NCBI GenBank assembly: GCA_002633005.1
Contig: NMRA01000334.1
Location: forward strand, 62,001-126,000
Source of the DNA: Phoronis australis
Lineage: Eukaryota > Animalia > Phoronida
Length of the DNA stretch: 64,000 nucleotides
Reading direction: 5' to 3'
Position 1 is the stretch's first letter. Every line of letters starts with the position of its first letter. The notes beneath the pieces are model-generated. The model did no database searches, was not told the DNA's origin, and saw only the letters and a list, made by a program, of their open reading frames with translations. This document shows positions 12,531 through 40,117 of this stretch, one piece after another. Position numbers and translations under genes: made by a program.

Positions 12531-12632
12531 TGATTGCCTCTTGTCACAGAACATGAGGTGAACTTACTCTAAGAACAGGTAGTAGAAAACAAAAATAGTA
12601 AACACAGTGCTAATACCGTAATCGTTCGGGTN

Positions 12633-15600
12633 CAGGGTTATGGTTGGGATTCTTGATGCGTCCGATCTCAATTGAAATGCAATGATGTTCTAGGAGTTTG
12701 TCTTTTTGAAGAGCCTGGAAACCTGAAGCCAGATCTGTACGGATAACTGCACGAGGGCCGTCTAACAATTGCAGTTCGAGACACATTTGGAGAAGACCAT
12801 TTCGAAGATCCTCGTGGCGTTCAGTAGCAACGATACAAGCCGCTGTGTAAGAAGAGACGCGCTCTCGGAGTACCAAAATCAGCTGTTGCTCGCGCTTCAT
12901 GACGTCAGCTGCAAACGACGTCCCAAGAGTCGCAGGTGTATCAGAGGTACTCTGCAGGGTCGTGGTTTTGGAGAAAGGGCGCATTGAACAACATTGATGG
13001 CACATGCGTGTGCAACGATCAATGGCAGACTCTAAATCAAGTGCAAAAAAGTATCGTTGGGTAACAAGTTTCAGTTGATGAGAGGTGGGGTGATCCAGCC
13101 GTAAACGAGGTGCCATGAGTAAGCCGTCCAAGATGGTACGTGGAACGATGATGCGTTCTTCATGAGCGACGAGGCTTGTCTCGCCGAGCCACAAGTAAAC
13201 CATCTGACGCGATAGTGGCGACGTTGAGATAGCGTTTGACATCCCGAGCGTTGGTGTCTCTCTTCGAGGGCTGCGTCCCTTGGTTGAGATGAGAGTGTAC
13301 TCGCCGTAACTCGGGAGACTCGGACTGAAGGGATAACCAAGATGACCTCGTGGTGAACGGAAGTTTGTATTCTACCTGAAGGACCTCGGCAGCAGTCGCA
13401 TGGAACACCACACAATCTTCCAGAGTGTTCACGAAAAAGGCAAACTTGGCAAGAAGCGTCGGTGCACTCTGGGCTGTGGCGACTTGCAAAGTCGGAGACG
13501 TGACAAACGATAGCCTGATATCGAGAAACGGTGGAGAGAAACGTCGACAAGTGAGGACTGACTGAGAATTCACCCCTGCAGTTTCTCGAAAGCTTGATGT
13601 CAGTAGGTATGATAGCAGGATGCGCTGACTGAATCAGATAAGGGCACGGAAGCAGCAATGGCGATCAGGGCTTCAATTTTGCATGGGAGCCAAGTAACTT
13701 GACGTGATCTCAGTTTCGCACTGAAGAAGCCGCAGACACGTGGCGTGTCCGCACGAGAGAGATACAGTGTACCAGCGATGCCCGGGTGTTTGGCGGAGGC
13801 GTCCGTGACTATCCACAGCTGATCGTCTAGTCTGGGTAGAGTGATAATTTTATGCGTGGACAATGCCTTTGGGCTGAGGTGAAGGCAACATGTAACAGGT
13901 AATGCGGTCTTTGGAATTGCATCACGATATAGCGGAGTCCAGTGCGGTGATGAAAGAAGCACAGTAAGGCAGAAATCTCGACATAGCTTTCACGGCTTCG
14001 CTGAAGGATCTTACTTGCCGAACAGTACCAGGTTTTGGACAAGACAAGACAGCAGCCACCTGATGTGAGCTAGCTTTTAAAGTACCCATCTCCCAAATCT
14101 AGCCAAGGACTTCTGTGCGTCGTGGGGCTATGACTGTCTTTGTAGAAGATAGACGGAGTTCCGCCATGGACAATGCATATAGCACCCTTTTCCAGTAGGT
14201 AATCAACTCTCTGATAGTCTGATCACCACAGTATAGGTTGTCAGCGAGCTTGGTGATGGCTCCATCTTCCAAAAGCTCTCCCAATACACGACACATGAAC
14301 TCTTCCAAAGCGGTTTCCAAACTGGGCATACCCATGACGCAACGTGCGTAGACATGGATACCTCGGAAAGGTGTGGATACGCCACAATATTTCATAGACT
14401 ATCGTGACAAAGGAATTTGATAGAAGGCACTCGTAAGATCAGTCTTGATGATGAACTTCCATTGAGCAATCTTCCGAAGCACGGAATCTACGTCAGGCAT
14501 GAGAGATGGCTGGGGCTTGGCGTACTGGCCGACGTCTGAAAAAGCTGTAACTAAACGAAAACCTCCATGGGGCTTCTTGACTAGAAACGAGGGATTAAGA
14601 CATTCTACTGTAATACCAACATCCTCTGGATGAGTGAATACTCCCAGGAACTTAAGCTCGTTGAATTTTTGTTGCAATTCCAGGAGCTTGTCCTTGGAGT
14701 ATTGGGGGAGGCGACCCATGTTGACGACGGCCTCAAACGGGCCTGAAGCGCCGTTGTACCCGGGGTATTGCGAATCAAATACATGAGCAAATTCTCGATG
14801 CAGGGCGTGGAACCTGTTCTGATCTGCAGCATGCAGAATATTGTCGCGATGAACGGCAAAAAAGCGATGATGATCCAAGGTAGTTTTGGGGGATGAGATA
14901 CATTGGGTGGCTGTCGGGGATCCAGATGGAACCTCTGAAGGAGTGAACACGGCGTGTACCTGGAAAAACTGCACATCTCGTCGCAAAAATCGTAGTTCAT
15001 TGGTGTTGTTGAACAGGCGAATTTTGCCATTAGTCGGAGCAAGAATGACAGGTTGTGGCCATAGCTGGGAAACACCCGTGGAGTGGAGGCTAATGCTGTC
15101 GCAGCGAGGTTTGATTGCACGATGTTCTTCAGGATCGGTGAAATCAGACGGGGCCTCCAACTCAAAACAATCACCAGGCCAGATGGCTGTCACGTGAGGT
15201 GGAGCACGTAATACGTGGGACAGTCGTGCTGTGGGTCGTGGGTATTGGTTTACGAATTGGCCATAAGTGTTTATAGATCCGTCGGCCAATGTGATAACCG
15301 AGCAGGTCGTACTGAAAAGTCGTTGTAAGTCATAAATGGGGTTGCTGCCAACACGCCTACATCAAGAGACTCGATAAAAAGACCGTGAAAAACGAAGGAA
15401 TGCTTGTCACGTGTGAAGACAAGTTGAGTTTCCCCCACAACATGTAGAGTAGATGTACCATCGGGCTGGAAGGCGGTTTGGGAATTTCTACGAACTTTCG
15501 TGCCCAACGAATGTGCACACGATGCGCTAATCATGTTTCCTGAGGCACGACAATCAAAAGTCAAACGCACGGGGGTTTGACCAGTAAATGTGTCGAGATA
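12633..15600 (-). pseudogene. Disrupted retrotransposon pol (protease, RT, RNase H, integrase)
   Basis: ORF fragments 15271-16038, 14399-15289, 14099-14395, 13600-13962, 13160-13573 and 12610-13242 carry consecutive pol motifs in different frames. Confidence 0.88.
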
Positions 15601-16594
15601 AGGAGACTGGACTATGTGGACGCGAAGCGCAACAGCGGAGTAAGGGCAGAACTGCTCGCAAGATATTGTGTCTTGAGCGAAGTCCTCCTCGGTGGCCTCG
15701 TCAACGTTGGTGGACCGGGCCTTGAGAAAAGCGCGCTTGTCGTCAGGTGGAAGGAACGGGCACCGAGACAAGAAGTGGTCTGAGGGAGTGCCGCGGGCGG
15801 TGGTGCATAAGACGCACGACGAGGTTCTACGGCGGCGAGGGGGGTTTGTCTTCGAGCTGGTTATGCGCATGGAGCGAGTGTCCTCGATACACCTAAGCTC
15901 ATCAAGTAGTGAGTTGATAGCTTGAGAAATTTCAGTCTTGATGGAGGCAAAGGACTTGTTGCTCAACTCCGCGCCATATAGTTGCTTAACAAGTTGGGGG
16001 TAAACCTGGGTTGACCATCCGTAACCATAACAACACAATAGTATTTTCGAGGGAGGGAGTCATGTCTTCGTCAATGTCGACAGGCTCGCCATGATGCATT
16101 ATGTCGCACCCAACGGTGAGTAAGTTATCATCAAAAAAAGCAGTGAGGCGCTGGAATAGGTCTTCAGGACGTTCATTTGGATCTAATGATATGAGTCCCA
16201 GGTCTAAGAAATGTGCTGCTGTGGAAGCGAATCCGAAATGTTGGCAGATTGTCTGCCAAATGTCCAGGACAGAGGTGGATGACTTCACGATAGAATTACG
16301 GGGTAAGGATTGGACAAAAATTGGCAATTTGTCCCAGCATGAGCTCTAAATGAGCCAGTTTCATGTGAGCAGAACGCTGCTGCAGTTCTGGGGTGTCATC
16401 GGGGTCGTCGGGCAGAGGTCAAGCAGTGGAGCAGTGACTGTCTTTTTTAGCCAACTAACACCGTCAACAAGAAATGGTGCAAAGTGAGGGTCCAACGAAA
16501 GGATGTATAATAAATTCTGCATCCAGCTATCAAATGAAGTAATGGTCTCATTTTTAGTGAGCGGCCACTGTTTTGGAGCTCAGGTTGTAGCCAT
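15601..16594 (-). pseudogene. Disrupted retrotransposon gag
   Basis: ATG at 16594 just after the PBS. Motifs [48 protein letters not shown] and a CxxC...H...C knuckle. Confidence 0.8.
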
Positions 16595-25900: not shown

Positions 25901-27313
25901 TAATTTGGTTCATAGTCTTACGCAGTGTTAATTAGGTCTGGCCAAAAATCCAAGCTTCAAATTCCAACAGACCCTGGTAGTGGAGGCAAATCTGCCTGTT
26001 AAAGCAATGGGTGAACTCTGTTTTTATCAGGAACACTAACTCGCCTTATTAAAAAAACAAAACGGTTCCCATCCCAAAACGCAAACCAAACTGGTTTTTA
26101 AAGACGGTGCTGTCAATTTCAATGACAAATAATCAATGGTCTTTGTTGGACCACTTCTGCTAGCGTACTCTTCTATTTTATTCTTATTTACAAAATCCTT
26201 TTACTTATTTATTGCATAACAATTTATACTCTCCTGACGCTATAGTATAAGAATGTTACACGTGATAGTTCTTTACAGTATAAGCTCGATGACATTACAG
26301 CAACTCTCCACTCAATTCGCACAAAAATATTGCCCATTACTACAAATTATGCTATTTACTGAAAGTGGTTTTATGACATCTGTACAGTACAGCCATGCTA
26401 GTATTGACTAAAATGTTCTTAATCTTTTAGTTTTGTGGAGAAATTTGCCAAACTAGACTGATTCTCATCCATACTGTGATTAATACTGAACAAGTTCTGT
26501 TGGCAGCAAATAAATGCTAAAATGTTTAGCGACATACATACCTGCTAAGATGCATTTCAGTTACATTTTGCACGTATTGTCTTTTTGCTTTGAAAACCTG
26601 TAGTCAGATGTGAATACTGAGGTTTGTGCAGTTATTAAGAGTCTAGTGTTGACTTGCTTCAAGTAAATTTCATCAACCAAGGCAATCCAGTCATCATGTG
26701 CACCTTGAACGCTTCCAGGTGGTTAAACTAGAAATTTGGAGTTTTGTGTGGCAGCAACTTGTTCAAGCGCATTTTGATCATAGGAGATGCAACTGTGCAC
26801 AAGCGGTACAACGCTATTTATTACAGAACTCTCAGTGTAGTGACACACATTAATCAATAGTGGCTTACATTGGATAGAGGTGTGTTTAACTTCACAGTTA
26901 AATTATTGCTCATTGGCAATGTCTCTGCTTTTGTGATTACATGTAAATACACTTTGTACATTTGTATTTAGCCATATTGTGTGTGTGGGTGTGTTGGTAT
27001 AGTAATAGACATGTATTCCCAACACTGAATTGTTTTATTCTCATATTTACAGTTTCGGATACTTGCAGCACAATTGTCGAGTTTAGACAAACTACAAAGT
27101 CAAAATAGACAACGCTTAAATTGTAGAGCTCTCTTACAAAACTCTAAGGAACAAATCTCCAGCAACTAAGCACAATTGTTCACCAGCATTCATAGATGAG
27201 TAAAACATTTTGTCGTACACGCCCACCAAAACGTTCATTAAAATGAAGCAGAAGTTGGAAACGAAACAGAAAAGACTTTCCATGATGGTTCTCTTTCAAC
27301 TGGAATGATGAGA

Positions 27314-27496
27314 CTACATGCTGCTGAGTAGAGCTTCCATCTTGGACTGAATCTCTTCCTTCTTGGTTGTGCAACCCGATTCGTTATCTAAATACACCTG
27401 TTTGTTCATTTTCCCTGCTACCAGTTTCTCCGCTAACGAAATGGCTAAAGCGATCTGGTCTTTGTATTGCGTGTCCAATCGCTGGAGTTCGACCAC
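27314..27496 (-). CDS. RPN1: RPN1 exon 10 (terminal)
   Basis: ttcag|[12 protein letters not shown]...EALLSSM*. Confidence 0.92.
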   Translation of the reverse strand: MVELQRLDTQYKDQIALAISLAEKLVAGKMNKQVYLDNESGCTTKKEEIQSKMEALLSSM

Positions 27497-30400
27497 CTGA
27501 AATAATGCTTGAAGATGTGACGACTGTAAACATTCAAACTAAACCACTCTTACGTTCACGCACAATGATTCACTCGTGAATGTTTTCATCAAGAGATGTT
27601 TTCCAGCACAGGGTATCTCAAAGAGAGGCAAAAGACTTGAGTGTACTGACAGCTCAAGCCACATAAAAGTACAACTAAAAATACAGACCATCTCTCAAAC
27701 ACAGAATCTGAACAATGACCGAGAACTTTTCGGAACTTCATTGCCAAATATTAAACAGGGAAGCTTGCAAAGTGCGATTTCTGTTGTATACGATGGACCG
27801 TCCAGAGTTCAGCTTCCTGCCTACAGTGACAACCCAATAATTCTTAGATTCAAACGAACACACATTCCTGGCTATACAGATTTGACTTGTTTTTGTGCAA
27901 TAGGAATAGATATTTTGAGTATCCCCTCAAATCGCGATCACAAAAAGGGCATTTTTAAACATCTCCATTTGATGGCAAAGCTCTATTCGACCTACTCACC
28001 TTTTCCGCCATGTCTGAGCTCTCTGTCTTCAGTTTGGTCTGCAGGGCCGTCATCTGCTGGGTAAGAGTCTTGTGGTCGTGGTCGATCTTTTTGCGCTGGC
28101 TCGTCAGAGCCGTGTGGTCCTTACTCGCCTTGAACTTGTTGACGGCATCCTCGTATGACTGGTAGAGGGCGCTGCGTTTGTCGTGCGTGCTCTGTACAGT
28201 CTCCACAAGACTAGCCACACGCATCTTGCTCTCAGCTGCCATGTCCTGGTAAGGAATACCATCAAGTGAATGATCGGGTTAGATTATGGGCTAGGCAACT
28301 AACTGTAGACTGTACTACTTCATAGACAAGTGACTGAGACTGAACTATGGAATCAAAACCCTTGCATGTTTAATTAAAAATGTGAGAACTCTCTGATGGT
28401 TTGAATTAGTGGCCAGCTACCTGTGCCAAGACACCCACTGCTGGTTTACAAAAACGGTCAGGTCATTAGAATACAAATAACATACTTAATTACGAAAGGT
28501 GAATTCGTCACCCGCAATCTACTCACACCCATACTCGACATAACAAGTAAAAACGGAGTCCGGTTGGTAGAAAGATATGAAAATTATTTTGTTTTTTGAC
28601 AGTAAGGAAGCCTTCAGTAAAACGTGTAATCATAATTAATCAGGAACTAAAACAAAGTCTTAGACATCATCAGGCTTCCAGTATCAGCAGACTACTCTAG
28701 GTTTCAACTGTCATTATCAGAAACTGGTGAGGCGCGGCACAATGACCTCAAGAACTAGTATGAGAGCGGTGACTTTACTTCCCTCTTGCATACTTATACT
28801 GCTGCTATTGGCCTCTTTAAGGAGAACGAAGACATTACACAGGATTGCGAGACAGCTGTCCACCGAAGCAATCATGCCAGCACAAGCAGACACACAATCT
28901 GCAGGGTTCGTTTCATTTTAGTAGCGTTGCACACAGACAGAAGTTCAGTTGATCATAGCTACCAGTAAACGGGTAGCATCAGCTTAGTCTCGACCAACAG
29001 CTTACTGAGCAGCTGAGAATCCTACAAATCTACACTGTAGGAACGCACATCGGTTTTCGTTTTTTGTAAAAGTCGGTGGGTCTTTAATTTTATACTCAGT
29101 TGCATAGTGGTCCGTCGAATCGCCACCAGCGTTTTTTCACTAGCAATAAATTTATAGCCATAGCATAAAAACTTTCATTAAAAATGGGCGACATTTTGAA
29201 GCAAAAATTCACCTCCATTTCTTCAAGAGTTATTTTTCGATACGTCTCCATGTGGGTTTTCATTGCAACTACGCCCTCTTACGTTCAACAACCGACTCAC
29301 CTTGGTGATGGAGAAGTCGAGACGAACATAGATGATGACCAGCATGAAGAGAAGGTAGAAGGACAGGACGACCAACATTGGCTCTTGAAGCAACAGCATC
29401 TTCTTGTATGTGTAGTGCAGCTACAATAGAGTGATGTAGTGATGCGTTCACATGGATAACTTCTTGGTTAGCTATTTTAAAGGGACATGTTCCTTTTGGG
29501 GCAGAAAAAAAAACGCGAGATAGTGCGCTTCTGTGAACGTTCGTTTTAGGTGCCTGGTCTGACCTCTGATCAGACATACGGTGTGTCTTGTTCAATAATT
29601 CTACACCGGGATAAAACACACCCCCAGATTTAAAAGGATGTCGTATTTTTACAGCCGAAAAGTGCATTCTTGTGATTATTGCTGTATGTGGTAGACATCT
29701 TAAAGTTGCTCGCTTCGACTACAGGTGTAAAACAACAAACGCGTTGTTGTTTGAGATTTAACTACAAAATTGCCAATTCTCGTTGTTGGCTGCCAGTCAG
29801 TTTATGAAAGTGAGGCCAGACTTTATCAGCTGAATGCTCTTAAAATACTTGTCTATTTGCCGAGTGGGGTTTAGCTCAGCTAGCGAAGCATTGCACTGCA
29901 GCCACTGAGACTATGAATTCGAATGCATCTTGGGGCTGAGCTTAAAAAATTCTCACAGACTGTGTCTCTAGCCTAATCGGCAATCCATGACTCTAGTGGG
30001 TTCAAACGACATAAGTGTAATATTGAGAATGTCAACTCGCCATGTTAAAAAAATTGAAACATGCCTGGAGATAACTTGCTGACTTAAAGCTGCCAAAAAC
30101 TATCACCTTCGCACGTCACTTTGACTTTTCAACAAAGAGTGTTTACCTCAAAGTCCTGAATGTGTGGCTCAACCAGGTTGGTCTTCTTGGCCAGGATCAC
30201 AGGTCTACCCATGGTGTCAAGGTAAGTGTAATGCAGCTCGCTTGGCAGCTGGTCCACGCCATAGGGCACACTGAGGCTCACAAACCTGAGGTTGGAAAGC
30301 AGCAAATGTTAACCACCTGCCGGCACTTCATCGTTTTGTGAATGCACCATTACCAGTTTACGCTTAAATACTCAACACAACAGTCACAGTTGTGTTAATT

Positions 30401-33400
30401 TATTAGGTTACTCGAATGACTGGAAATCAGCTTTACACAATACTGCGACAACAATCACAGAAACTATGTATAATTTCCTCAAATTCGAACAGAAACAACG
30501 GTGCTCACTGCATTGCTAAAATGTTCAAAATTTCTTGAATACAGCTGTATTATACGAAGTTTTCAAAGTAATCCAGTAAAATTGTCTTCTTGCTGAAAAT
30601 TTCGATAAAATGAGATTTTACCGTTCTACCAAATTGTGCCTTAATTTGAAGAAACATTACTGCACATAGTCTAGCCAGCATGCCAGTGCTATCTGTGTGA
30701 TGTGTTCATTATGAAAAAAAAAGTGATAAACAGCGTCATATGAGTTGCACTGAATTTCACACGCGTTGAGATCACCACTTACTTGGCCCCCTCGGGAAGG
30801 ATCACCTTCAGCGTCATGTCATCGATAACCTGGTCATCGAACACGTGATCCACGAACCTCATCTTGAGCACGTAGTCGTCACCTGCCAATACGTAAAGCA
30901 AGTTAAAAAGCACATCCCTCTGTTATTAAATAATAGCTTTTGGGTGTTTTGCCGGCTCAACTGTATATCTGAACCATTTACACGAGACCAAGTTTAGTGC
31001 ATGCTGTCCTGACTATTATATTAAGGATGAATTGAATCGAATCGCATCGCGTTAGTGACGGTTTCCATAAACAAAGCCCCATTTTGATTTGATTTTTAGT
31101 TCTAATTTCTGCCGTCGTTTTAGATGTCTTACAATGTCACAACTTATTTGTATCCATTGAACAAATTAACAGCTCTGGACTGTTCATTAGCTGGAATATG
31201 TTTAACAATTTGTTGCTTAAATAGGTATGAGTGATAAGTATTTGAAAAATGAATCCAATTCAGGGCTTGAGATGACCAATGACAAAAAAGAGGAAATATT
31301 ACAGGTGATGTGCAATTCCACAAATAGGCTTGTGTGAAAGAAATGTTTTATGTGCTGAAACTTTTTTACTCAAATAAACATTTTTGTACGAACAAAGTCT
31401 AAATATCGATAAAAAAGTGACGAAAAAAGAGTAAACTGAAAATCAAAAAAGAGGAAATCCATGTAACTTGACAAACATGAATCACAAATAGTCAAATTCC
31501 TCCTAAAAAGAACTGTCAAATAAAACCAAACTCCAAACATTGTGTATTGTCCCACCTTTACATCACACCACAAGCACAAATGACTAGCTGGACACACCTT
31601 TGTTATAGAGGTACTCATAGCTAGGCACATTGTAACCCAGTGTGTAGTGAGTCTTCCAGCCACCAAATAGCGGGAAACGTGGACGTAAATCTACCTCTAC
31701 GGCCTCGTCCAGCTCTCGCAGGTTGGAGGTAGAAATGTTGCCGATCTCGTCGCGGTAGTAGACATCCTTGGCGGCTGCCGGAAGGACAGACTGACAAAGA
31801 GAGAAATTAACACATGTAAGCTTGAGTACGTTGTGCGTGACAAAATTACTGATACATGGAAGCTTACACAAATTTGTAGGCACCATCACTTTGAGAACAA
31901 GATATTACACTTGTTCTGAGTATCGCTTATGTTGTGAATGAAAGTTCAAATGTTCAGGGTTATATTCAGATTCAGGAAGCCTTCAGTAAAATTTGTAATC
32001 ACTACAGTTCAGGAACTAAAACAAAGTCTTAGACATCATCAGGCTTCAACTGACTAACGTGTCAAATATATTTCCAGTAGATACATCTTCAGTCTTATGT
32101 GAACTGTTACCAATATCTGATAGCTTCACTGAGTATGTACAACAAAACAAACAAACAAACAAACAAACAAACAAACAAACAAACAAACAAACACATATTA
32201 TAAGTGGGACTGTGTAAACAATACATAACAAGGTACCTTGAAAGCCTTGATGGCAGAGTGGGTGTTCTGTGCACGCTGGTAATCATAACGCGAGAACGGG
32301 CCCTTCAACACTGCCCCCGTGTGGCGAATGTCGAGCGTCTCTTCAATGGCCACGTTGCCCCAGTGAGAGACCTCGATCAATCGCTCCATGCTGGACACAG
32401 CCAGGAAGGGACTGTTGTTCTCGTAGTGCACAGTGATGTCAGCCTATGGTGGAAAACAAGAGTCATTGGTGACTGTGCGCGGTTTGTGAATGTCCATCTA
32501 GGCACACACGTATGATGGAAACATTACAGCAAGCCTTCAGCAAATGATCTAATCAGTACAGATATCATAGATTAAAACAAAGTCTTCAGACATCACAAGG
32601 CTTGAGAAATGTAACTATGTGTTAACACAAAAAGAATTCAATGAGAACGATGTGTAATTTGGCGATATTAGAACAGAAATAGTCCCAATACAAAACATAA
32701 AATCCCTGGAAATTGCTTTGTCAACAAATCAAAGAGACAGCGCACTGCTCCACAGGGTTGACTGTTCGGTGGAAGTTGTCAATCAAAACCTGAATGAAAA
32801 TTTGAAAAACAAAACAGCGAATACATGGTCATCACACTTATATCACCTACTCTGGCATATGGGTCTTTTGGTTCATATGGGCCGTAGGTGATGACAGCCT
32901 CAGACTGTGCCACAGGCTTGGGTGTCTTGGAGTACGACTCCAGCTTGCTACTGGGCAGGGTGATGGCCGTAGTTTGTTTCTTGACCCTGTATGGGCTGTA
33001 GAAGAAGGCGGAGCCCTCGTACAGTACCAGCTGGTCTTGGCTCTGCGTGATCTCGGCGGGGTAGGGGCGCAGGGCATGCGCAAACACTGTATCCACAGTG
33101 ACGGTTACTGTCTTGCCAGCAGGCAGGCTACTACCCAGGGTCACACGCCAAAAATCTGCACCGCTAGAAAGAAAGCACCATAAAAATTAATTTGCTATAT
33201 GGTCCAAGACTTCCTTCACATGTTGATATGCTAGGTGGTTCAAAACCTCCTTCACACGTTGATTTGCTAAGTGGTTCAAGACCTCACTCACATGTTGATG
33301 AAAACGTGTTTTACCACATCCAAGTGAAGTTCTTCAATACACGGGTCTTATCACAGACCTGCAGGTCGCTTATGTGACCTCAGATTGTGTTTGTCGACCT

Positions 33401-36400
33401 GGGAAAAATTCCTCCAAGTCGCCACGAGGTCGCCACTGAAAGTTTGATATTCAGACAATATTTTCCTCTAAGTTTATTTCAACATTGGTGTTGACTTCAA
33501 AACTTTAATTTCCTACTGTGTTCCTATATTCATTACCTTAACTTAAACAATTTTCCTGTTTATTTTGTGAATTGAACGCATTTACCACCACATTTAAATT
33601 ACAACAGGAAGTAAACAGATAGATGTTGGAATAGTTTGGCAAATATCAGGCAGGATCGACGAAACTTGTGCCACCAGGCCATGCCATCATCTGTGTCCTA
33701 TGCTCATCCGTTGGCGGGAGGAACAGCGGAGTTAGAGCATGAGGATACATATACCTACAGTGGAAATCAGGGCACCGTAAGGAAAATTGGTGCCATGCTC
33801 GACGAAAATTTACGCCCAATAAGAAACGTAACTCATCGACGCCGATGATTTTGCTATCAATTTTGGCAACCGCAGATTTTGTTTGGCAACCTGGGATTTG
33901 TACCAGGTCGCCAAATGCAATTTGGCATTTTGCTAAGCATCAAGTGCCGTATCAGATTTCTGTGTCTTGACGAGTGGTCTCGGTAGACTCGAGCCCAAAT
34001 CAAGAGACATATTGCCTGACTTGTAAATCACGGGATGTGACCATGTGTGTCTTTAACTCTGTGAAGTAACTACACTATGCAATTACAAATTGTGTAACAA
34101 AAATTACCATGTGTCTATGGCATACAAAATATGGAGATTTTTTGTACCTCAAGAAATTTTCCACATCCGATCGTTGCAATTTTCCATTTTTCAGGCATGT
34201 ATCAGGCGGGCCTGAAGAGTTTTTACGACCACAAATGATGAGTAAAATACAGCGGATACTTACATTTCACCGTGCGCCACTGTAACTGGCAGAACGTCTA
34301 ATTTTGACTCTTCGTCTTCTCCTTTTGTCTGAAATATTCAAGTAGCAGTCTTAAGGTTTAGGACGTTATTGACAAGTCAATGTATTTAACCATATACATA
34401 CATAACTATGTAAAGGCTGTTCCAGCAAAATCTGTGTGGGAGGGGGGGAAGGCAACTGAAATAAAAATTTATGGGTGGTTGCGTTTGATTTAAATTCAAA
34501 ATGGCTGGTGGTCGTACTTCAAAAAAATAAAAATTAACAGGTCGTTGTTGTTTCATTGGGCCATAAATGTTTGATGGTGGGTAAGTTTAGTAAATTTTAT
34601 AAACAATCCGCTCAGAATCAAAAACTGAAACGAAAATGCAACTTGCAAAAAGCTCAGACTTTTTCACTCCCTCCGATCTCCTCATCAGCATGCCCATAAC
34701 ACCATTTAACCACAGGTGCTCGAATATCTCGATGACTAATAACCATATACAAGAAACATGTGTTTTCTTAGTAATGAATGACGTTAGTGGTGATGGAGGA
34801 ACAGATGAACTCAAGCGCCTGTGCAGTCAACCACAAGAACAAAAAAAAATTACGGGTGGTTGCACTTCAAACTTATAAAAAATTACGGGTGGTAGGCTGA
34901 AGAAATAAATGAAAAATATGGGTGGTGGGTGCGAAAAATAGGTGCCTTTCCCCCCTCCCATACAGATTTTACTGGAACAGCCCTAATTGAATTCAGTAAC
35001 AATATAATTTTTTGAAGTAGCAAGCCTCTAGAATTAGAGTTTTGACTTTTCACCAACCTGCCTTTCAAAGGGTCATCATGTCTTTTTACTAAATGTCAGT
35101 ACAACAGTACAAGGGTCACAAATAGTTTCCATAAGAAACAGGTGTTTATTAATTACTAGTATCATTTACTATAATGAGCACTCATTCTACTACGATTTTG
35201 TAGTTTGAACAGCCTTATGAACTATTCACTTGCTGTCCTCTGTGCATGGTACAAAGTGGTAGGCCGTCACTTAATGGTCTTGATTCTTCCTTTAACGGTA
35301 ATGCATGTGTTGAACACAAGCCGTCGACACGCTATCAAGCATTCAAAATGTTCAGCCAAAGTCCAGCTGGCTGTGTGAGTAGTTTACAGATGCTTTTATA
35401 TGAGTGTACGTCCTACCGGAATTGAAAATTCACAATATTTTCGACTTCATGAACTATTAATTATCACCATAAAACAATGGATTTCATTATTCATCAATTC
35501 TTAAATCACCATCTCGGCCCCATTTTTATGGGATCGAGGGCCCTGTATATTCATTCTCTAAGTCAATTATTCCTCAGGGCTCAACACTAACGGTTGCCGG
35601 ATTGCCCGTGTACATGTAGATTTTGCGTCGGGCAAGTGGAATTTGAAAAGTACTTGCCCGATGGGCAAGTTAAAAAGCTGGCCGCATAGGCAAGTAGATC
35701 CTAAGATTGTCTGCTCGACATTTGCTCCAAAATAACAAACCCCGACACAAGCCTAAAAACCGTCGAAGAAGTCCCTGTGGTCGTCAAAGAAACTCCCGTT
35801 TTCGAATGAGCACCGAAAGGAAAATAGAACGAGTGTGATGCAGCGTGCACAGATGACGCCCGCGGTCAAATCCTTTAGATTCTCTGAACGTGCCCTGCAG
35901 TTTCTGAATAAGTTGTCACGTGATACTACTGATCGTCTGCACTCTGGCAAAACGTCCAAACAAGGAAGCCGTCCAGGCCTGTACATCATTGGTTTAGTTG
36001 CTAAAAATGAGTTCAGGAAGAATCAAAGCAACGATATGAAACGAAAAGAGTGCGGGGATGGGTTCCGTCATGGGAAATCTACAGCTGGAAGCAACGCGTT
36101 CGTCGGCGTGTAAGTCATACAGATAAGCGCAAAAGCTAAAAAGTGAATGATTGACTACATATTTTCTACACTACACAACAGTTTTAAATGCCTGGTATTT
36201 ACTCAGGGGGTATTCCAAAGGAAATTCTTATGAATTCCCGGCTACCGGTGGCGACTCCCAAAAGAAGAGGAATGCGGTCTTCAGGATTGTCGCTCTGAAG
36301 GGTGACTTTTTCGCGGTCTATCTATTTTTCAAAAATGTAACTATTTATTGAAAATAAAAGTATATGTGGCATTATTATATGTTAAAATTTGATTTTAATT

Positions 36401-39400
36401 TAATACAAGGTACCGATGACCAAAACTGTGCAAGATTTTTACGCATAGCAAAAATTCAAATTCAGGTTAAGCAACAACTAAAGTTTAATGTACGAGGGCG
36501 TATAAACTAATGAATACACAGAAGTGTCTGAAGTTCATGTCCTAGCTCATTTCGGCGCCTGTGAATGTGAGACAGTGGTTCAGATACCATAGTTACTGTT
36601 CTAATTTGTCTCTGTAGTGTTTTGACACACCTTATAAATAAATGTTCTATAAGAAGAATTGTTAAAAAAATAGCACCTCATGTATATAGCATGCACAACA
36701 CAAGAGGAGGCTCAGCACAGGCAGCCCTACCGTAACACATTACACAGGTGTGCACATGCATGGTGCTATTTGGGATTGTACTTGGGGCAAGTGAATTTTT
36801 TGTTCGGGCAAGTAAAAGTTTCAACTACTTGCCTAAAAACACAGTCACTGTGTATTTATATACGTTTTAAAAGTGTACACTGAACTGGTGTGACCTACTT
36901 TTTTACTTTCCTACCAATTTTTCACCATAAGTCCTCCAAAGCATTTATGAAAGATTCAAAAAATCAATCTAAAGATTATAAGTTCCTTTTTTAATAAAAA
37001 TGTCAATTCTACTTATTAAATACTACTAACAAATGTGACGTAGTATTCAGGGACACCTGTTGTCCAGTTGAATAATTTCTAATTCGCCACCAGATGTCAG
37101 TCAAAATCAAAATCCTTTAAATTAAGCAAATCAAATTGTTAATTTACAGGTTTAAGTGCAAAATTTTAAAGTTAAAATAATATTGCTGGCTATTCAATTA
37201 TTAAGGTAAGGTAGCTGAAACCATAAAATTATGTTAGAAAAAGAATTTTTTCAAATTTTTTTTAGCAATAATTTATACAAAAATTAGGTCATATATGTAT
37301 TAGGAACTATGTCTAATGTAATCTAATTCACCCTCATTTTTGATTCCGAGGGCAAAAGTGCCAAGCCAGCCAAAGTTTTAACTTGGCGCTGCACTTTTCA
37401 AACTCGACGCGCATTCTCCAAACTCCACGCGGCAAAATTTAAACTTGTTGATGCATCGAGTCAAAACCGGTCGTGGAGAACACTGAATATACGAAGCCAT
37501 CAATTTCAATTCTTCATTTAACTCCAAAGGTTTTTTGGCAAAGACAGTACGGATAACTTCAGCCTACCTCTGAGTCTGACAATACAAGCCCTACAGTCAA
37601 CACAAGAATTAATCAATTTGGAGCTCAGGCTCAGTAAGGCCTCAGTCCTGACACATTGAACACTAAAATAAGACACTTTAAAAGCACTATCCAACACAGG
37701 CCATACACCGTTGCCTCAACCTTCGTCCACGAATACTCAAACAGGTGAATTTTTTCATGAACAGGGATTTCATTAACCAGTCTGGGTTCTCTGGACCACA
37801 GGCGCTTAAATTTCCAGGTGACTCACAACCATACATAAGAAACATAAAGGTTGGACAAAAAAACTTTGCCGAGCTTAGGCTCCCAACTTCAACTGTCCCA
37901 AATCCAAATAAAATCTGTGTGCATCTCCCTGAGACTGGTATTGCATAAACCTCCGAAGCCTTATCTTCCCTTGATCCAATTAAATTATCCCTCTGAGTGG
38001 TGAATTGGCGACAATCTCAAAACTCTGAATTCGAGGACCTAAAATAGTTAACATGGCGGATTCCAGTTGTGCTTTAACTTCTAGGCTTGTCGAAGACAAA
38101 ATTTCAAGTTTAAGCAACCAAGCCCCGTGTAAAAGTCAAGAAATTTATCCCCAATTTAAACGATTGAGGTTGCTAAAAAAACCTTCCACTAAATGTGTAA
38201 TGTATTTCTTCTTATAGCTCATTATATCGCTTAACCTAGAAATTGACATCATGTGCTCCTCTTTGTTGAAGCACAATGAAAACTCCATTTTTGACGGAAA
38301 TTGGCTGTCTGACCGCACGTGTAGTCGAGATAAATCACCTATCGGCAACTGCCTGATATCGCAGTAGGCCAGCGTTAGTAGCCAGCAAGTCGTGGTACTT
38401 CACCTCCAGTTATAAACAATGTTGTTTGTCATCACCACAGTTTGACTACATTCAAAATGATGCTAAATTATGTGGAGGGCACTCAAATAACATTCGTGGG
38501 CGCGCGAAAACAGAGCTTCGGAATTGCTTTGGGTACGTCCGCCAAAAACCCGGATGCTCGAAGGTCGTCTGCCATGAACGACTTACATCGCAAAATAAGG
38601 TCTTTGAATTTGTGATTTTTGCGTTTTTTCATATTTCTGTCGTCAAATCACCACTTGAAGGCAATTTGAAGTGATCAAGTGAAAGAAGGTATTCAAAGAC
38701 ATGTTCAATGCCGATTGCGTAAAGTTTCATGCACGTTTGAGTAGAAAATTCTGACCAAACCGATTTTTAGTGTCCAACCTTTATGTTTTCTTAATAGTGA
38801 GTGACGTCAGAGGAGATCGTAGCCTTGGTACAAAGCTGTATACTATGGTAAATATACAGCTTTGCATCGATGTGGGTAAAAAAGTGGTAAAAGAAAATCT
38901 GACACAAAATTTGTGTCATTAAAAACTAGTCTTCCTGGAGTAAACTAAATTATTTAACGGCGTTGGAAACATGGTGTTCTACTATTAATCTGCTGCTAAA
39001 GTTGTGCAGCGATCTTTAGCGAGGTTTTTGACGCCATGAAATATTGCATCACATATTATCCAGTTTCTTTTTTCGCCGATTCTTCAATCAACTGTACTTT
39101 TTCCACGAGATTGTGTACATGTCACAACAAATTATCGGAACTGGTTTCATTTAGTTACAAGTGATTAGAATTTTAATACTGAAAAACTGAATTTCAGAAC
39201 AAATTTTGCTGCTGCGAAGTGTTCACAAAAATTTAGGAAATTGCGTGTGCGCGTGACACGAGCGTACTGTTTTCAAAACGACAACATACTTTGCATTGTT
39301 ACAAAAGGTTGAGCATGACGCAAGAAAATGAAGTTTGTTGCATTGTTTTTCACTTAAATAGTTGTCACGGGCAAGGTGAGTGTCGGTCGACAACCAGATT

Positions 39401-40117
39401 TTGCACGCACCCTGTCCGGTCTTTAGATTTACATGTTGAAACAAGTGTCACGGCGAAGTGACGAGCAGAACTATCCTGGCTGTGTGCAATTTCGGGGTCT
39501 ATGGAAGAAAAACACACAGTGTCACCAGTGGTACCTAGCTGTATTTAGACGACAGTCTCCATACAGCTAGCTGGCTGGCTAATGTTGTGAGACTAGAGTG
39601 GCACACGACCCTAGTCTTGACAGAGGAGATCATGGAACAGATAAACTCAAGCGCCTGTGCTCTGGACTGCCGCTTCAAAATCCCAACATGTTCAATCAAT
39701 GCCGAACAAACTAGGAGGCAACTGCCTTAGTAAGCGGCCAGAATAGGATTTATTAGACTCCCCAGTCCTACAAGAACTTGCACCGGTTTCGAGACACGTC
39801 ACCATCAACAGACAACGATCCCACTTTTTTGAGAAATCAAAAAATCCCAAAATTCAAGCTTTACCTACCATTGCACCAATAAATGATAGTTGACTTTTTG
39901 CACCAGGTTGCAAAGCAAACACAAAAGATCGAACTGCAGACTTTCCCCCATTTTCGATCGTCACCGAGGTTGAAACCTTTACGAGATGAGTCGTCAAATC
40001 GACCTTCCTATCGACTTCGCTAAGTACAAGGTCTGAACTAATTGTCTCTTGATTTGCAGTATAACATGTACTTAGGAAAGCAGCGATCACAATCGCCTTG
40101 AACTGAAAGCCCTGCAT
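27314..40117 (-). CDS. RPN1: Dolichyl-diphosphooligosaccharide-protein glycosyltransferase subunit 1 (ribophorin I); 10 coding exons, 604 aa
   Basis: Exons of 249, 65, 313, 207, 193, 100, 139, 120, 246 and 183 nt (total 1815) join in frame. They include a signal peptide, [51 protein letters not shown] and a TM helix. Confidence 0.98.
28000..28245 (-). CDS. RPN1: RPN1 exon 9
   Basis: [13 protein letters not shown]...SDMAEK|gtgagt. Confidence 0.94.
28606..28679 (-). ncRNA. Box C/D snoRNA candidate A (RPN1 intron 8)
   Basis: Minus strand GGAAGCC-TG-ATGATGT(C)-CTAAGA-CTTTGTTTTAGTTC-CTGA(D')-TTAATT-ATGATTA(C')-CACGTTTTA-CTGA(D)-A-GGCTTCC. It has a 7-bp terminal stem and is sense to the host gene. 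Confidence 0.85.
29301..29420 (-). CDS. RPN1: RPN1 exon 8 (transmembrane segment)
   Basis: [40 protein letters not shown]|gtgagt. Confidence 0.95.
29865..29942 (+). mobile_element. Degenerate tRNA-derived SINE head
   Basis: A-box-like TAGCTCAGCTAG and B-box-like GAATTCGAATGC at tRNA-like spacing. No intact cloverleaf. Confidence 0.35.
30147..30285 (-). CDS. RPN1: RPN1 exon 7
   Basis: [46 protein letters not shown]|gtaaac. Confidence 0.95.
30783..30882 (-). CDS. RPN1: RPN1 exon 6
   Basis: [32 protein letters not shown]|gtaagt. Confidence 0.95.
31261..31460 (+). mobile_element. Truncated MITE of the CAGGGC-ended family also present at 61509-61764
   Basis: CAGGGCTTGAGATGACCAATGACAAAAAAG... 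aligns with the reverse complement of 61764 leftwards for about 200 bp. Confidence 0.65.
31598..31790 (-). CDS. RPN1: RPN1 exon 5
   Basis: [22 protein letters not shown]...[11 protein letters not shown]...YLYNK. Confidence 0.97.
31976..32047 (-). ncRNA. Box C/D snoRNA candidate B (RPN1 intron 4)
   Basis: Minus strand GAAGCC-TG-ATGATGT-CTAAGA-CTTTGTTTTAGTTC-CTGA-ACTGTA-GTGATTA-CAAATTTTA-CTGA-A-GGCTTC, a paralogue of 28606-28679. Confidence 0.85.
32144..32192. repeat. (AAAC)n microsatellite
   Basis: About 12 AAAC units. Confidence 0.95.
32237..32443 (-). CDS. RPN1: RPN1 exon 4
   Basis: [30 protein letters not shown]...AIKAFK|gtacct. Confidence 0.96.
32530..32604 (-). ncRNA. Box C/D snoRNA candidate C (RPN1 intron 3)
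   Basis: Minus strand CAAGCC-TT-GTGATGT-CTGAAGA-CTTTGTTTTAATCT-ATGA(D')-TATCTGTA-CTGATTA(C')-GATCATTTG-CTGA(D)-A-GGCTTG. It ends about 86 nt upstream of the 3' splice site. Confidence 0.8.
32851..33163 (-). CDS. RPN1: RPN1 exon 3
   Basis: [21 protein letters not shown]...[14 protein letters not shown]|gtaggt. Confidence 0.95.
33192..33298. repeat. Minisatellite, about 3 x 33 bp
   Basis: Repeated tgctaRRtggttcaagacctccttcacatgttgat-like unit. Confidence 0.8.
33340..33950. mobile_element. Degenerate DNA-transposon remnant with CAGGTCGC/GCRACC subterminal motifs
   Basis: Clusters of aggtcgc/aagtcgc at 33360-33435 and ggcaacc/aggtcgc at 33865-33912 resemble those of the 20291-22468 element. 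The TIRs are not clear. Confidence 0.4.
34264..34328 (-). CDS. RPN1: RPN1 exon 2
   Basis: ttcag|[21 protein letters not shown](I)|gtaagt. The 65-nt length and phases fit exons 1 and 3. Confidence 0.85.
34414..34983. mobile_element. PIF/Harbinger-like MITE (570 bp), TAA TSD
   Basis: About 40-bp TIRs (R)GGCTGTTCCAGYAAAATCTGTRTGGGAGGGGGGAAGGCA at both ends, with TAA on both flanks. Confidence 0.85.
35575..36832. mobile_element. hAT-like non-autonomous element, right end missing
   Basis: Starts CAGGGCTCAACA. Clusters of GGGCAAGT/ACTTGCCC subterminal repeats at 35600-35700 and 36780-36832. Confidence 0.6.
39869..40117 (-). CDS. RPN1: RPN1 exon 1 (signal peptide)
   Basis: [21 protein letters not shown]...[14 protein letters not shown]...LSFIGAM|gtaggt. 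Confidence 0.93.

Follow-up and report, generated by a model that had tools for sequence, protein, structure and literature searches.

Intronic small nucleolar RNAs (snoRNAs) of the box C/D class are released from their host transcripts by an established pathway, and the ribosomal RNA (rRNA) nucleotide that they select for 2′-O-methylation is fixed by the +5 rule, as the base facing the fifth guide nucleotide upstream of box D or D′. Here we describe three candidate elements of this type, termed copies A, B and C, which reside in introns of RPN1 (ribophorin I) in a 64,000 nt stretch of Phoronis australis DNA (contig NMRA01000334.1, positions 62,001 to 126,000; hereafter the window). The closest described class includes the Drosophila multi-copy guides CD28a-d and CD3a-d, which are intron-encoded and carry the same C, D′, C′ and D boxes and terminal stem (PMC11014333, Table 1). 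Members of this class and copies A-C alike have an antisense element of 10 or more nt, conform to the +5 rule and include several paralogs for one site. Copies A-C differ from the class in that their target uridine is unlisted, no Rfam family covers them and RPN1 was not found as a reported host.

Two other systems act in the same region of the large subunit (LSU) rRNA. The nearest mapped guides are zebrafish SNORD201, from an rps12 intron, and Arabidopsis At4gCDbox112.1, which serve LSU Gm3606/3627 (yeast 2123). SNORD201 also guides from D′ and in the same rRNA neighbourhood, but the target of these RNAs lies 18 nt upstream of that of copies A-C, their antisense sequence is unrelated, and the base predicted for copies A-C is not the G at yeast 2123. 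In yeast, the Bmt2-dependent 1-methyladenosine m1A2142 and pseudouridines 2129 and 2133 occupy the same helix, helix 65, as the 2′-O-methyluridine (Um) predicted here (PMC3664796). Bmt2 is a stand-alone enzyme that methylates a base, whereas copies A-C are predicted to guide methylation of a ribose.

We consider it probable that copies A-C are snoRNA genes and that their shared D′ guide, as its predicted pairing indicates, directs 2′-O-methylation of one uridine in helix 65. The original prediction had placed three elements of 72-75 nt in separate introns, all sense to RPN1, each with a terminal stem, box C RTGATGT, D′ (CTGA, CTGA and ATGA), C′ NTGATTA and box D CTGA. All of these features are present on the minus strand (Table 1). 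In the layout common to the copies, box C precedes the guide CTTTGTTTTA(G/A)T, which is followed by D′, C′ and an exact box D, with a box C-to-D span of 57-60 nt. Whole-element folding yields z values of only -1.6 to -2.4.

Copies A and B are identical at 64 of 74 aligned columns and share a run of 39 consecutive nucleotides; the corresponding figures are 56 of 77 columns for A and C, and 57 of 77 for B and C. Of the 21 spacer sites, 7 differ between A and B, as against a single one of the 51 sites in stem, boxes and guide (p = 0.0005, Fisher test). In their 60 nt flanks the two copies agree at only 20 and 24 positions, as unrelated sequences would. Because the spacers differ at five of six sites and the guides at none of 14, both copies appear to have been constrained after duplication. 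It had been proposed that only the boxes, stem and guide are conserved. The segment adjacent to box D is indeed divergent, but the linker of 6-7 nt between box C and the guide must be added to the conserved parts of copies A-C. A 3 bp hairpin is possible in this linker, and contiguous rRNA pairing does not account for its conservation.

A pattern combining guide and boxes matches only copies A-C in the window and matches in none of 100 shuffles; as the pattern was derived from these same copies, the shuffles show only that chance copies are unexpected. A profile built from the three copies detected no fourth in the window (next best E = 1.9), and a generic C/D scan of the window (stem of at least 5 bp) returned seven matches, three of which are copies A-C. 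A further C/D-like stretch (26557-26697) was set aside, being located past the RPN1 3′ ends and antisense to another transcript; it is probably due to chance.

The model of the host gene RPN1 is stop-free over 604 codons, uses GT donors and AG acceptors, and assigns copy C to intron 3, copy B to intron 4 and copy A to intron 8; four of the six exon frames submitted matched Pfam Ribophorin_I (PF04597). For transcript evidence, three raw RNA-seq runs of 151 nt pairs with the same species label (X6, X7 and X8) were used, about one-fifth of each. The joints of introns 3, 4, 7, 8 and 9 were each confirmed by 130-384 reads, with the transcript on the minus strand, and read ends place the RPN1 3′ ends near 27019-27040.

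To locate the target we used a eukaryotic LSU rRNA fragment recovered in a collection scan (L001; the L designations denote scan loci), which Rfam aligns to RF02543 positions 2127-2337. Copies A and B form with this fragment a 13 bp duplex containing one G-U pair, and copy C forms 12 Watson-Crick pairs. In each copy, an A occupies the fifth place upstream of D′ and is opposite one and the same U, at RF02543 position 2147 in a hairpin loop. The guide complement is also consistent with the Rfam eukaryotic LSU consensus and is carried by a published animal 28S primer (PMC3063787). The 12-13 bp pairing anticipated in the original prediction is borne out on the fragment, with which the consensus and the primer agree, and the choice of one U by the +5 rule in all three copies, despite their different D′ contexts, was confirmed on L001. 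Under uniform composition, a 12 bp Watson-Crick match is expected ~3e-4 times in 5,500 rRNA sites. A and G can both pair with the target U at guide position 4, in keeping with the variation there, and pairing rules derived from zebrafish snoRNAs fit copies A-C (PMC7668251). As a separate matter, the 28S fragment opens a viral contig (positions 1-120) and is followed there by a phage-like gene; this join is probably an assembly chimera.

The predicted target corresponds to yeast U2141, human U3645 (old 3624) and fly 2520. This numbering was anchored on zebrafish Gm3606, the third G of a G run, which equals yeast 2123 and human 3627; the target lies 18 nt downstream. Under the same numbering, yeast pseudouridine 2133 falls on a U and m1A2142 on the A after the target, both of which PMC3664796 requires; this agreement identifies the loop as that of helix 65. 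Yeast m1A2142 directly follows the predicted Um on its 3′ side.

We then asked whether the site or the family is already catalogued. An Rfam search, as the original prediction had recommended, gave no match in the window at gathering score (Rfam 15). Weak matches at the correct places (20-27 bits) involve SNORD72, snR78, SNORD98, SNORD107, SNORD2 and snoZ159, but these scores are far below gathering (37-55 bits), the similarity is driven by the boxes, and this antisense element is missing from all of them in the alignments shown. Methylation maps of seven species were consulted: human, yeast, fly, frog (Xenopus), Arabidopsis, Dictyostelium and zebrafish. In Table S4 of PMC11014333 (rows 112-177), which aligns sites of the first six of these, the methylated positions in yeast numbering are 2112, 2123, 2125 and next 2197; Table 1 of the same paper, for fly, and Table 1 of PMC8817022, for Dictyostelium, likewise lack the site. 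In the zebrafish overview, Gm3606 and Cm3680 stand in consecutive rows (PMC7668251, 12 of 17 supplementary files). The guide string is absent from the supplements of PMC8817022, PMC11014333 and PMC6461891 and from those same 12 files of PMC7668251, where guides given as pictures would be missed.

In the literature searched, which took in few subscription papers, we found no mention of the site or guide when looking for the target 13-mer, Um2141 and the guide string (a match to the guide string in PMC3063787 is the PCR primer), and no report of RPN1 as a snoRNA host among the titles and opening abstract lines checked. RPN1, ribophorin and the human gene identifier are also absent from three text supplement files of PMC3511168, and none of the terms sought occurs in PMC13487219 or PMC8053127. 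The suggestion that RPN1 is not a known snoRNA host therefore agrees with these searches. The broader suggestion of an undescribed host and guide family stands as regards Rfam and the host, but must be modified in one respect, as the guide is peculiar neither to RPN1 nor to this animal.

This last point emerged from a metagenome scan for box C, the guide core, D′ and D, which returned 28 loci. Eighteen lie inside frames of at least 230 codons, and L005 and L017 fail the box C or stem test; on these grounds 20 were counted as chance. The remaining eight (L002, L010, L015, L016, L018, L019, L021 and L023) are snoRNA-like, and represent seven distinct candidates because L015 and L018 have the same sequence. 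All eight have a purine-led box C, a D′ CTGA, a stem of 4-9 bp and a duplex of 13-16 bp outside long frames, and guide positions that the search pattern left free also pair. At gathering score, Rfam gave no match in the 16 of the 28 loci that were submitted and none for the eight candidates, and among the alignments shown for their weaker matches none has this guide. When the same pattern was applied to prokaryote genomes as a control, 17 matches were obtained, all evidently chance. A scan of viral contigs in which a fungal-type guide was also allowed gave six matches, none of which passed.

Genomic context is independent evidence for the outside candidates. L002, L023, L021 and L018 each sit within an intron with GT-AG ends, and an open frame results when that intron is taken out; L010 shows only a candidate 3′ splice site, and L019 lacks context. 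The Sm host gene of L002 and L023 (Table 1) we take to be SmD1, and these two loci have in common an internal hairpin between D′ and D. The host of L021 is RPS4, with best matches mostly to animal-type entries by name. That of L018 is an RRM gene; on the same contig, Cox11 has its top named relatives mainly among trebouxiophyte algae (Micractinium, Chlorella and Coccomyxa). In general, these contexts indicate that the guide likely belongs to a wider eukaryotic, uncatalogued family that moves between housekeeping hosts, of which RPN1 is one among several. Outside the guide and boxes the candidates do not align with copies A-C, nor is the linker conserved in them. Common descent is not shown, because this alignment is lacking and the pattern itself fixed the D′ register; convergence of the candidates on one site is possible.

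A number of observations weigh against the assignment that we favour. Box C ends in T in all three copies rather than in the A of the consensus RUGAUGA. Pairing was computed on LSU rRNA of other eukaryotes, not on this species' own 28S. Copies A and B each have a G-U pair next to the target pair, and copy C combines a mismatch at position 2 upstream of D′ with the D′ box ATGA; such departures are rare among zebrafish guides (PMC7668251). Permitting G-U throughout raises the chance of a 13 nt match to ~0.17. The predicted U is listed in 0 of the 7 maps and is thus 2′-O-methylated in none of these mapped species, a comparison outside which lie the maps of C. elegans, S. pombe, Chlamydomonas, Euglena, trypanosomatids and Tetrahymena. 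Mature RNAs were unseen: in the three runs, RNA-seq depth was 0 over C and did not exceed 2.7 over B, although 151 nt paired libraries are ill-suited to 70 nt RNAs and such low depth over B and C says little. As for the outside candidates, a loose filter did not separate metagenome from prokaryote matches (12 of 28 versus 3 of 17; p = 0.11). A strict filter did (9 of 28 versus 0 of 17; p = 0.009), but it was chosen after the matches had been viewed, passes the coding locus L014 and would fail copy C.

Some of these points would suit a different account, which we judge unlikely, wherein copies A-C are real, expressed snoRNAs whose pairing gives no methylation at this U. Such RNAs might serve as helix-65 folding chaperones in 60S assembly, might methylate the site fractionally, or might pair with another RNA through a region that includes the linker. 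The unmodified state of the site in the seven mapped species is in keeping with this account, as are the imperfection near D′ in each copy and the conservation of the linker 5′ of the guide in copies A-C despite a 2 nt mismatch with 28S. It accords poorly with the same +5 register in three copies that have different D′ contexts, and with the outside candidates, in which pattern-free positions pair as well and the linker is not conserved. Somewhat less probable still is that only one or two copies work while the others are decaying duplicates, such as C with its ATGA or A and B with their G-U pairs. There is one deviation per copy, and box D lies at unequal distances from the 3′ splice site (93 nt in C, 192 nt in B and 368 nt in A), but the pattern of differences between A and B described above argues that both were constrained after duplication, and copy C retains every box and has C-G as the closing pair of its stem where that of copy B is G-C.

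The view that copies A-C are a small dispersed repeat or a chance motif devoid of snoRNA function is already largely refuted, and we assign it very little credence. It can draw on the missing Rfam match at gathering score, on the T-rich guide and on the 20 of 28 metagenome and 17 of 17 prokaryote pattern matches that are evidently chance. Against this, there are only three copies, all sense, one per intron and none elsewhere in the 64 kb, and their conservation is biased to boxes, stem and guide. In a DNA run that possibly represents the same sample as the window, contig depth is 90 in the bin that contains copy A and 41-46 to either side, equivalent to about two copies; such a roughly twofold value is to be expected if words are common to A and B but to little else. 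By comparison, DNA depth at a true repeat, 26406-26446, is 350-450. The original prediction had named a high-copy dispersed repeat as an outcome that would tell against it, and the twofold depth at copy A argues against one.

If copies A-C are methylation guides, as we favour, their action would be expected to follow the standard pathway. After splicing of the RPN1 pre-mRNA, each debranched intron would be trimmed to ends protected by the small nucleolar ribonucleoprotein (snoRNP). A particle of 15.5K, Nop56, Nop58 and fibrillarin would then pair the D′ guide with pre-28S rRNA, and fibrillarin would methylate the U opposite the fifth nucleotide upstream of D′, so that three guides yield a single Um in the helix-65 loop. 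The divergent 9 nt beside box D probably do not act as a guide. The mechanism is ordinary; what appears to be new is a family without an Rfam entry and a predicted site present on none of the seven maps. If the methylation occurs, it adds a ribose modification to helix 65, where base changes in yeast disturb subunit joining (PMC3664796).

To judge from sequence comparison, intron-to-intron duplication is the likely origin of the copies, with A and B the last to form. Guide position 4 is G in A and B but A in copy C and in all eight outside candidates, and for this reason the A-to-G change is probably derived and A and B the younger pair. SnoRNAs are known to move among broadly expressed hosts (PMC3511168), and multi-copy guides for one site are common (PMC11014333); given this mobility and multiplicity, neither the location in RPN1 nor the triplication is remarkable in kind. 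A more far-reaching scenario, tentative and in our view somewhat short of an even chance, is that an old uncatalogued family in animals, green algae and other eukaryotes methylates this helix-65 loop U at the subunit interface, perhaps as a counterpart of fungal Bmt2 m1A2142, that it was lost in each main model organism and hence went unlisted, that it was tripled in RPN1, and that copy A also caps a read-through RNA. Were this so, ancestral eukaryotic snoRNA reconstructions based on model organisms would miss families that those organisms have lost.

The possible capping role of copy A relates to reads in intron 8. Sense depth in X6 and X7 is 5-15 over 28355-28628 but only 0.2-1.6 in the bin with the 5′ part of copy A; over 28766-29176 it is 0 in all three runs, and X8 has none from copy A on. 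The reads have several starts, and in X7 a variant at 28508 occurs in 13 of 18 reads with 11 starts. SPA RNAs and the NOP56 snoRD86 cSPA are polyadenylated RNAs capped at their 5′ end by a snoRNA (PMC7038934). The intron-8 reads resemble these in that they begin about copy A and run in sense to the 3′ splice site, but differ in that the signal is binned, low and confined to two of the three runs, with no sharp 5′ end called and no common start listed in the bin that contains copy A. By analogy, the signal may reflect a snoRNA-capped read-through RNA protected at its 5′ end by a snoRNP, and an internal start site or an unlisted alternative splice would look similar.

Table 1. Coordinates of RPN1, of copies A-C and of related features (window positions except for L002 and L023)
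Feature	Position	Strand	Details
RPN1 (ribophorin I)	27314..40117	-	10 coding exons; Pfam PF04597, tblastn, gene model, splice joints, read ends
RPN1 exons 1-5	40117-39869, 34328-34264, 33163-32851, 32443-32237, 31790-31598	-
RPN1 exons 6-10	30882-30783, 30285-30147, 29420-29301, 28245-28000, 27496-27314	-
Copy A	28606..28679	-	RPN1 intron 8; 8 bp terminal stem
Copy A boxes	C 28670-28664, D′ 28643-28640, C′ 28633-28627, D 28617-28614	-	C ATGATGT, D′ CTGA, C′ ATGATTA
Copy A guide	28657-28644	-	+5 base 28648
Copy B	31976..32047	-	RPN1 intron 4; 7 bp terminal stem
Copy B boxes	C 32039-32033, D′ 32012-32009, C′ 32002-31996, D 31986-31983	-	D′ CTGA, C′ GTGATTA
Copy B guide	32026-32013	-	+5 base 32017
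Copy C	32530..32604	-	RPN1 intron 3; 7 bp terminal stem
Copy C boxes	C 32596-32590, D′ 32568-32565, C′ 32556-32550, D 32540-32537	-	C GTGATGT, D′ ATGA, C′ CTGATTA
Copy C guide	32582-32569	-	+5 base 32573
Linker, box C to guide (A, B, C)	28663-28658, 32032-32027, 32589-32583	-	6-7 nt; conserved in copies A-C
Intron 8, 3′ part	28246..28680	-	Low sense RNA-seq depth, about copy A to 3′ splice site
L002	279-353		First intron of Sm gene (Pfam LSM); one of two related protist-like genomes
L023	894-963		First intron of Sm gene (Pfam LSM); the other of the two genomes

The RPN1 protein is at best 64.6% identical to any of the 121 relatives fetched, and a tree with 35 rows places it together with Branchiostoma (95/87), the sole named deuterostome among them. 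RPN1 introns also carry repeats: intron 1 contains a 66 nt inverted repeat pair 482 nt apart (34392-35005), and intron 2 three tandem copies of 36 nt (33187-33299), while a CAAA microsatellite is found in intron 4 (32137-32201). Elsewhere in the window, broken frames at 12610-16059 on the minus strand resemble by eye a long terminal repeat (LTR)-retrotransposon pol region, and the three frames from there that were submitted to Pfam gave no match. A plus-strand transcript at 26300-26980 (depth 20-54) converges on the RPN1 3′ end.

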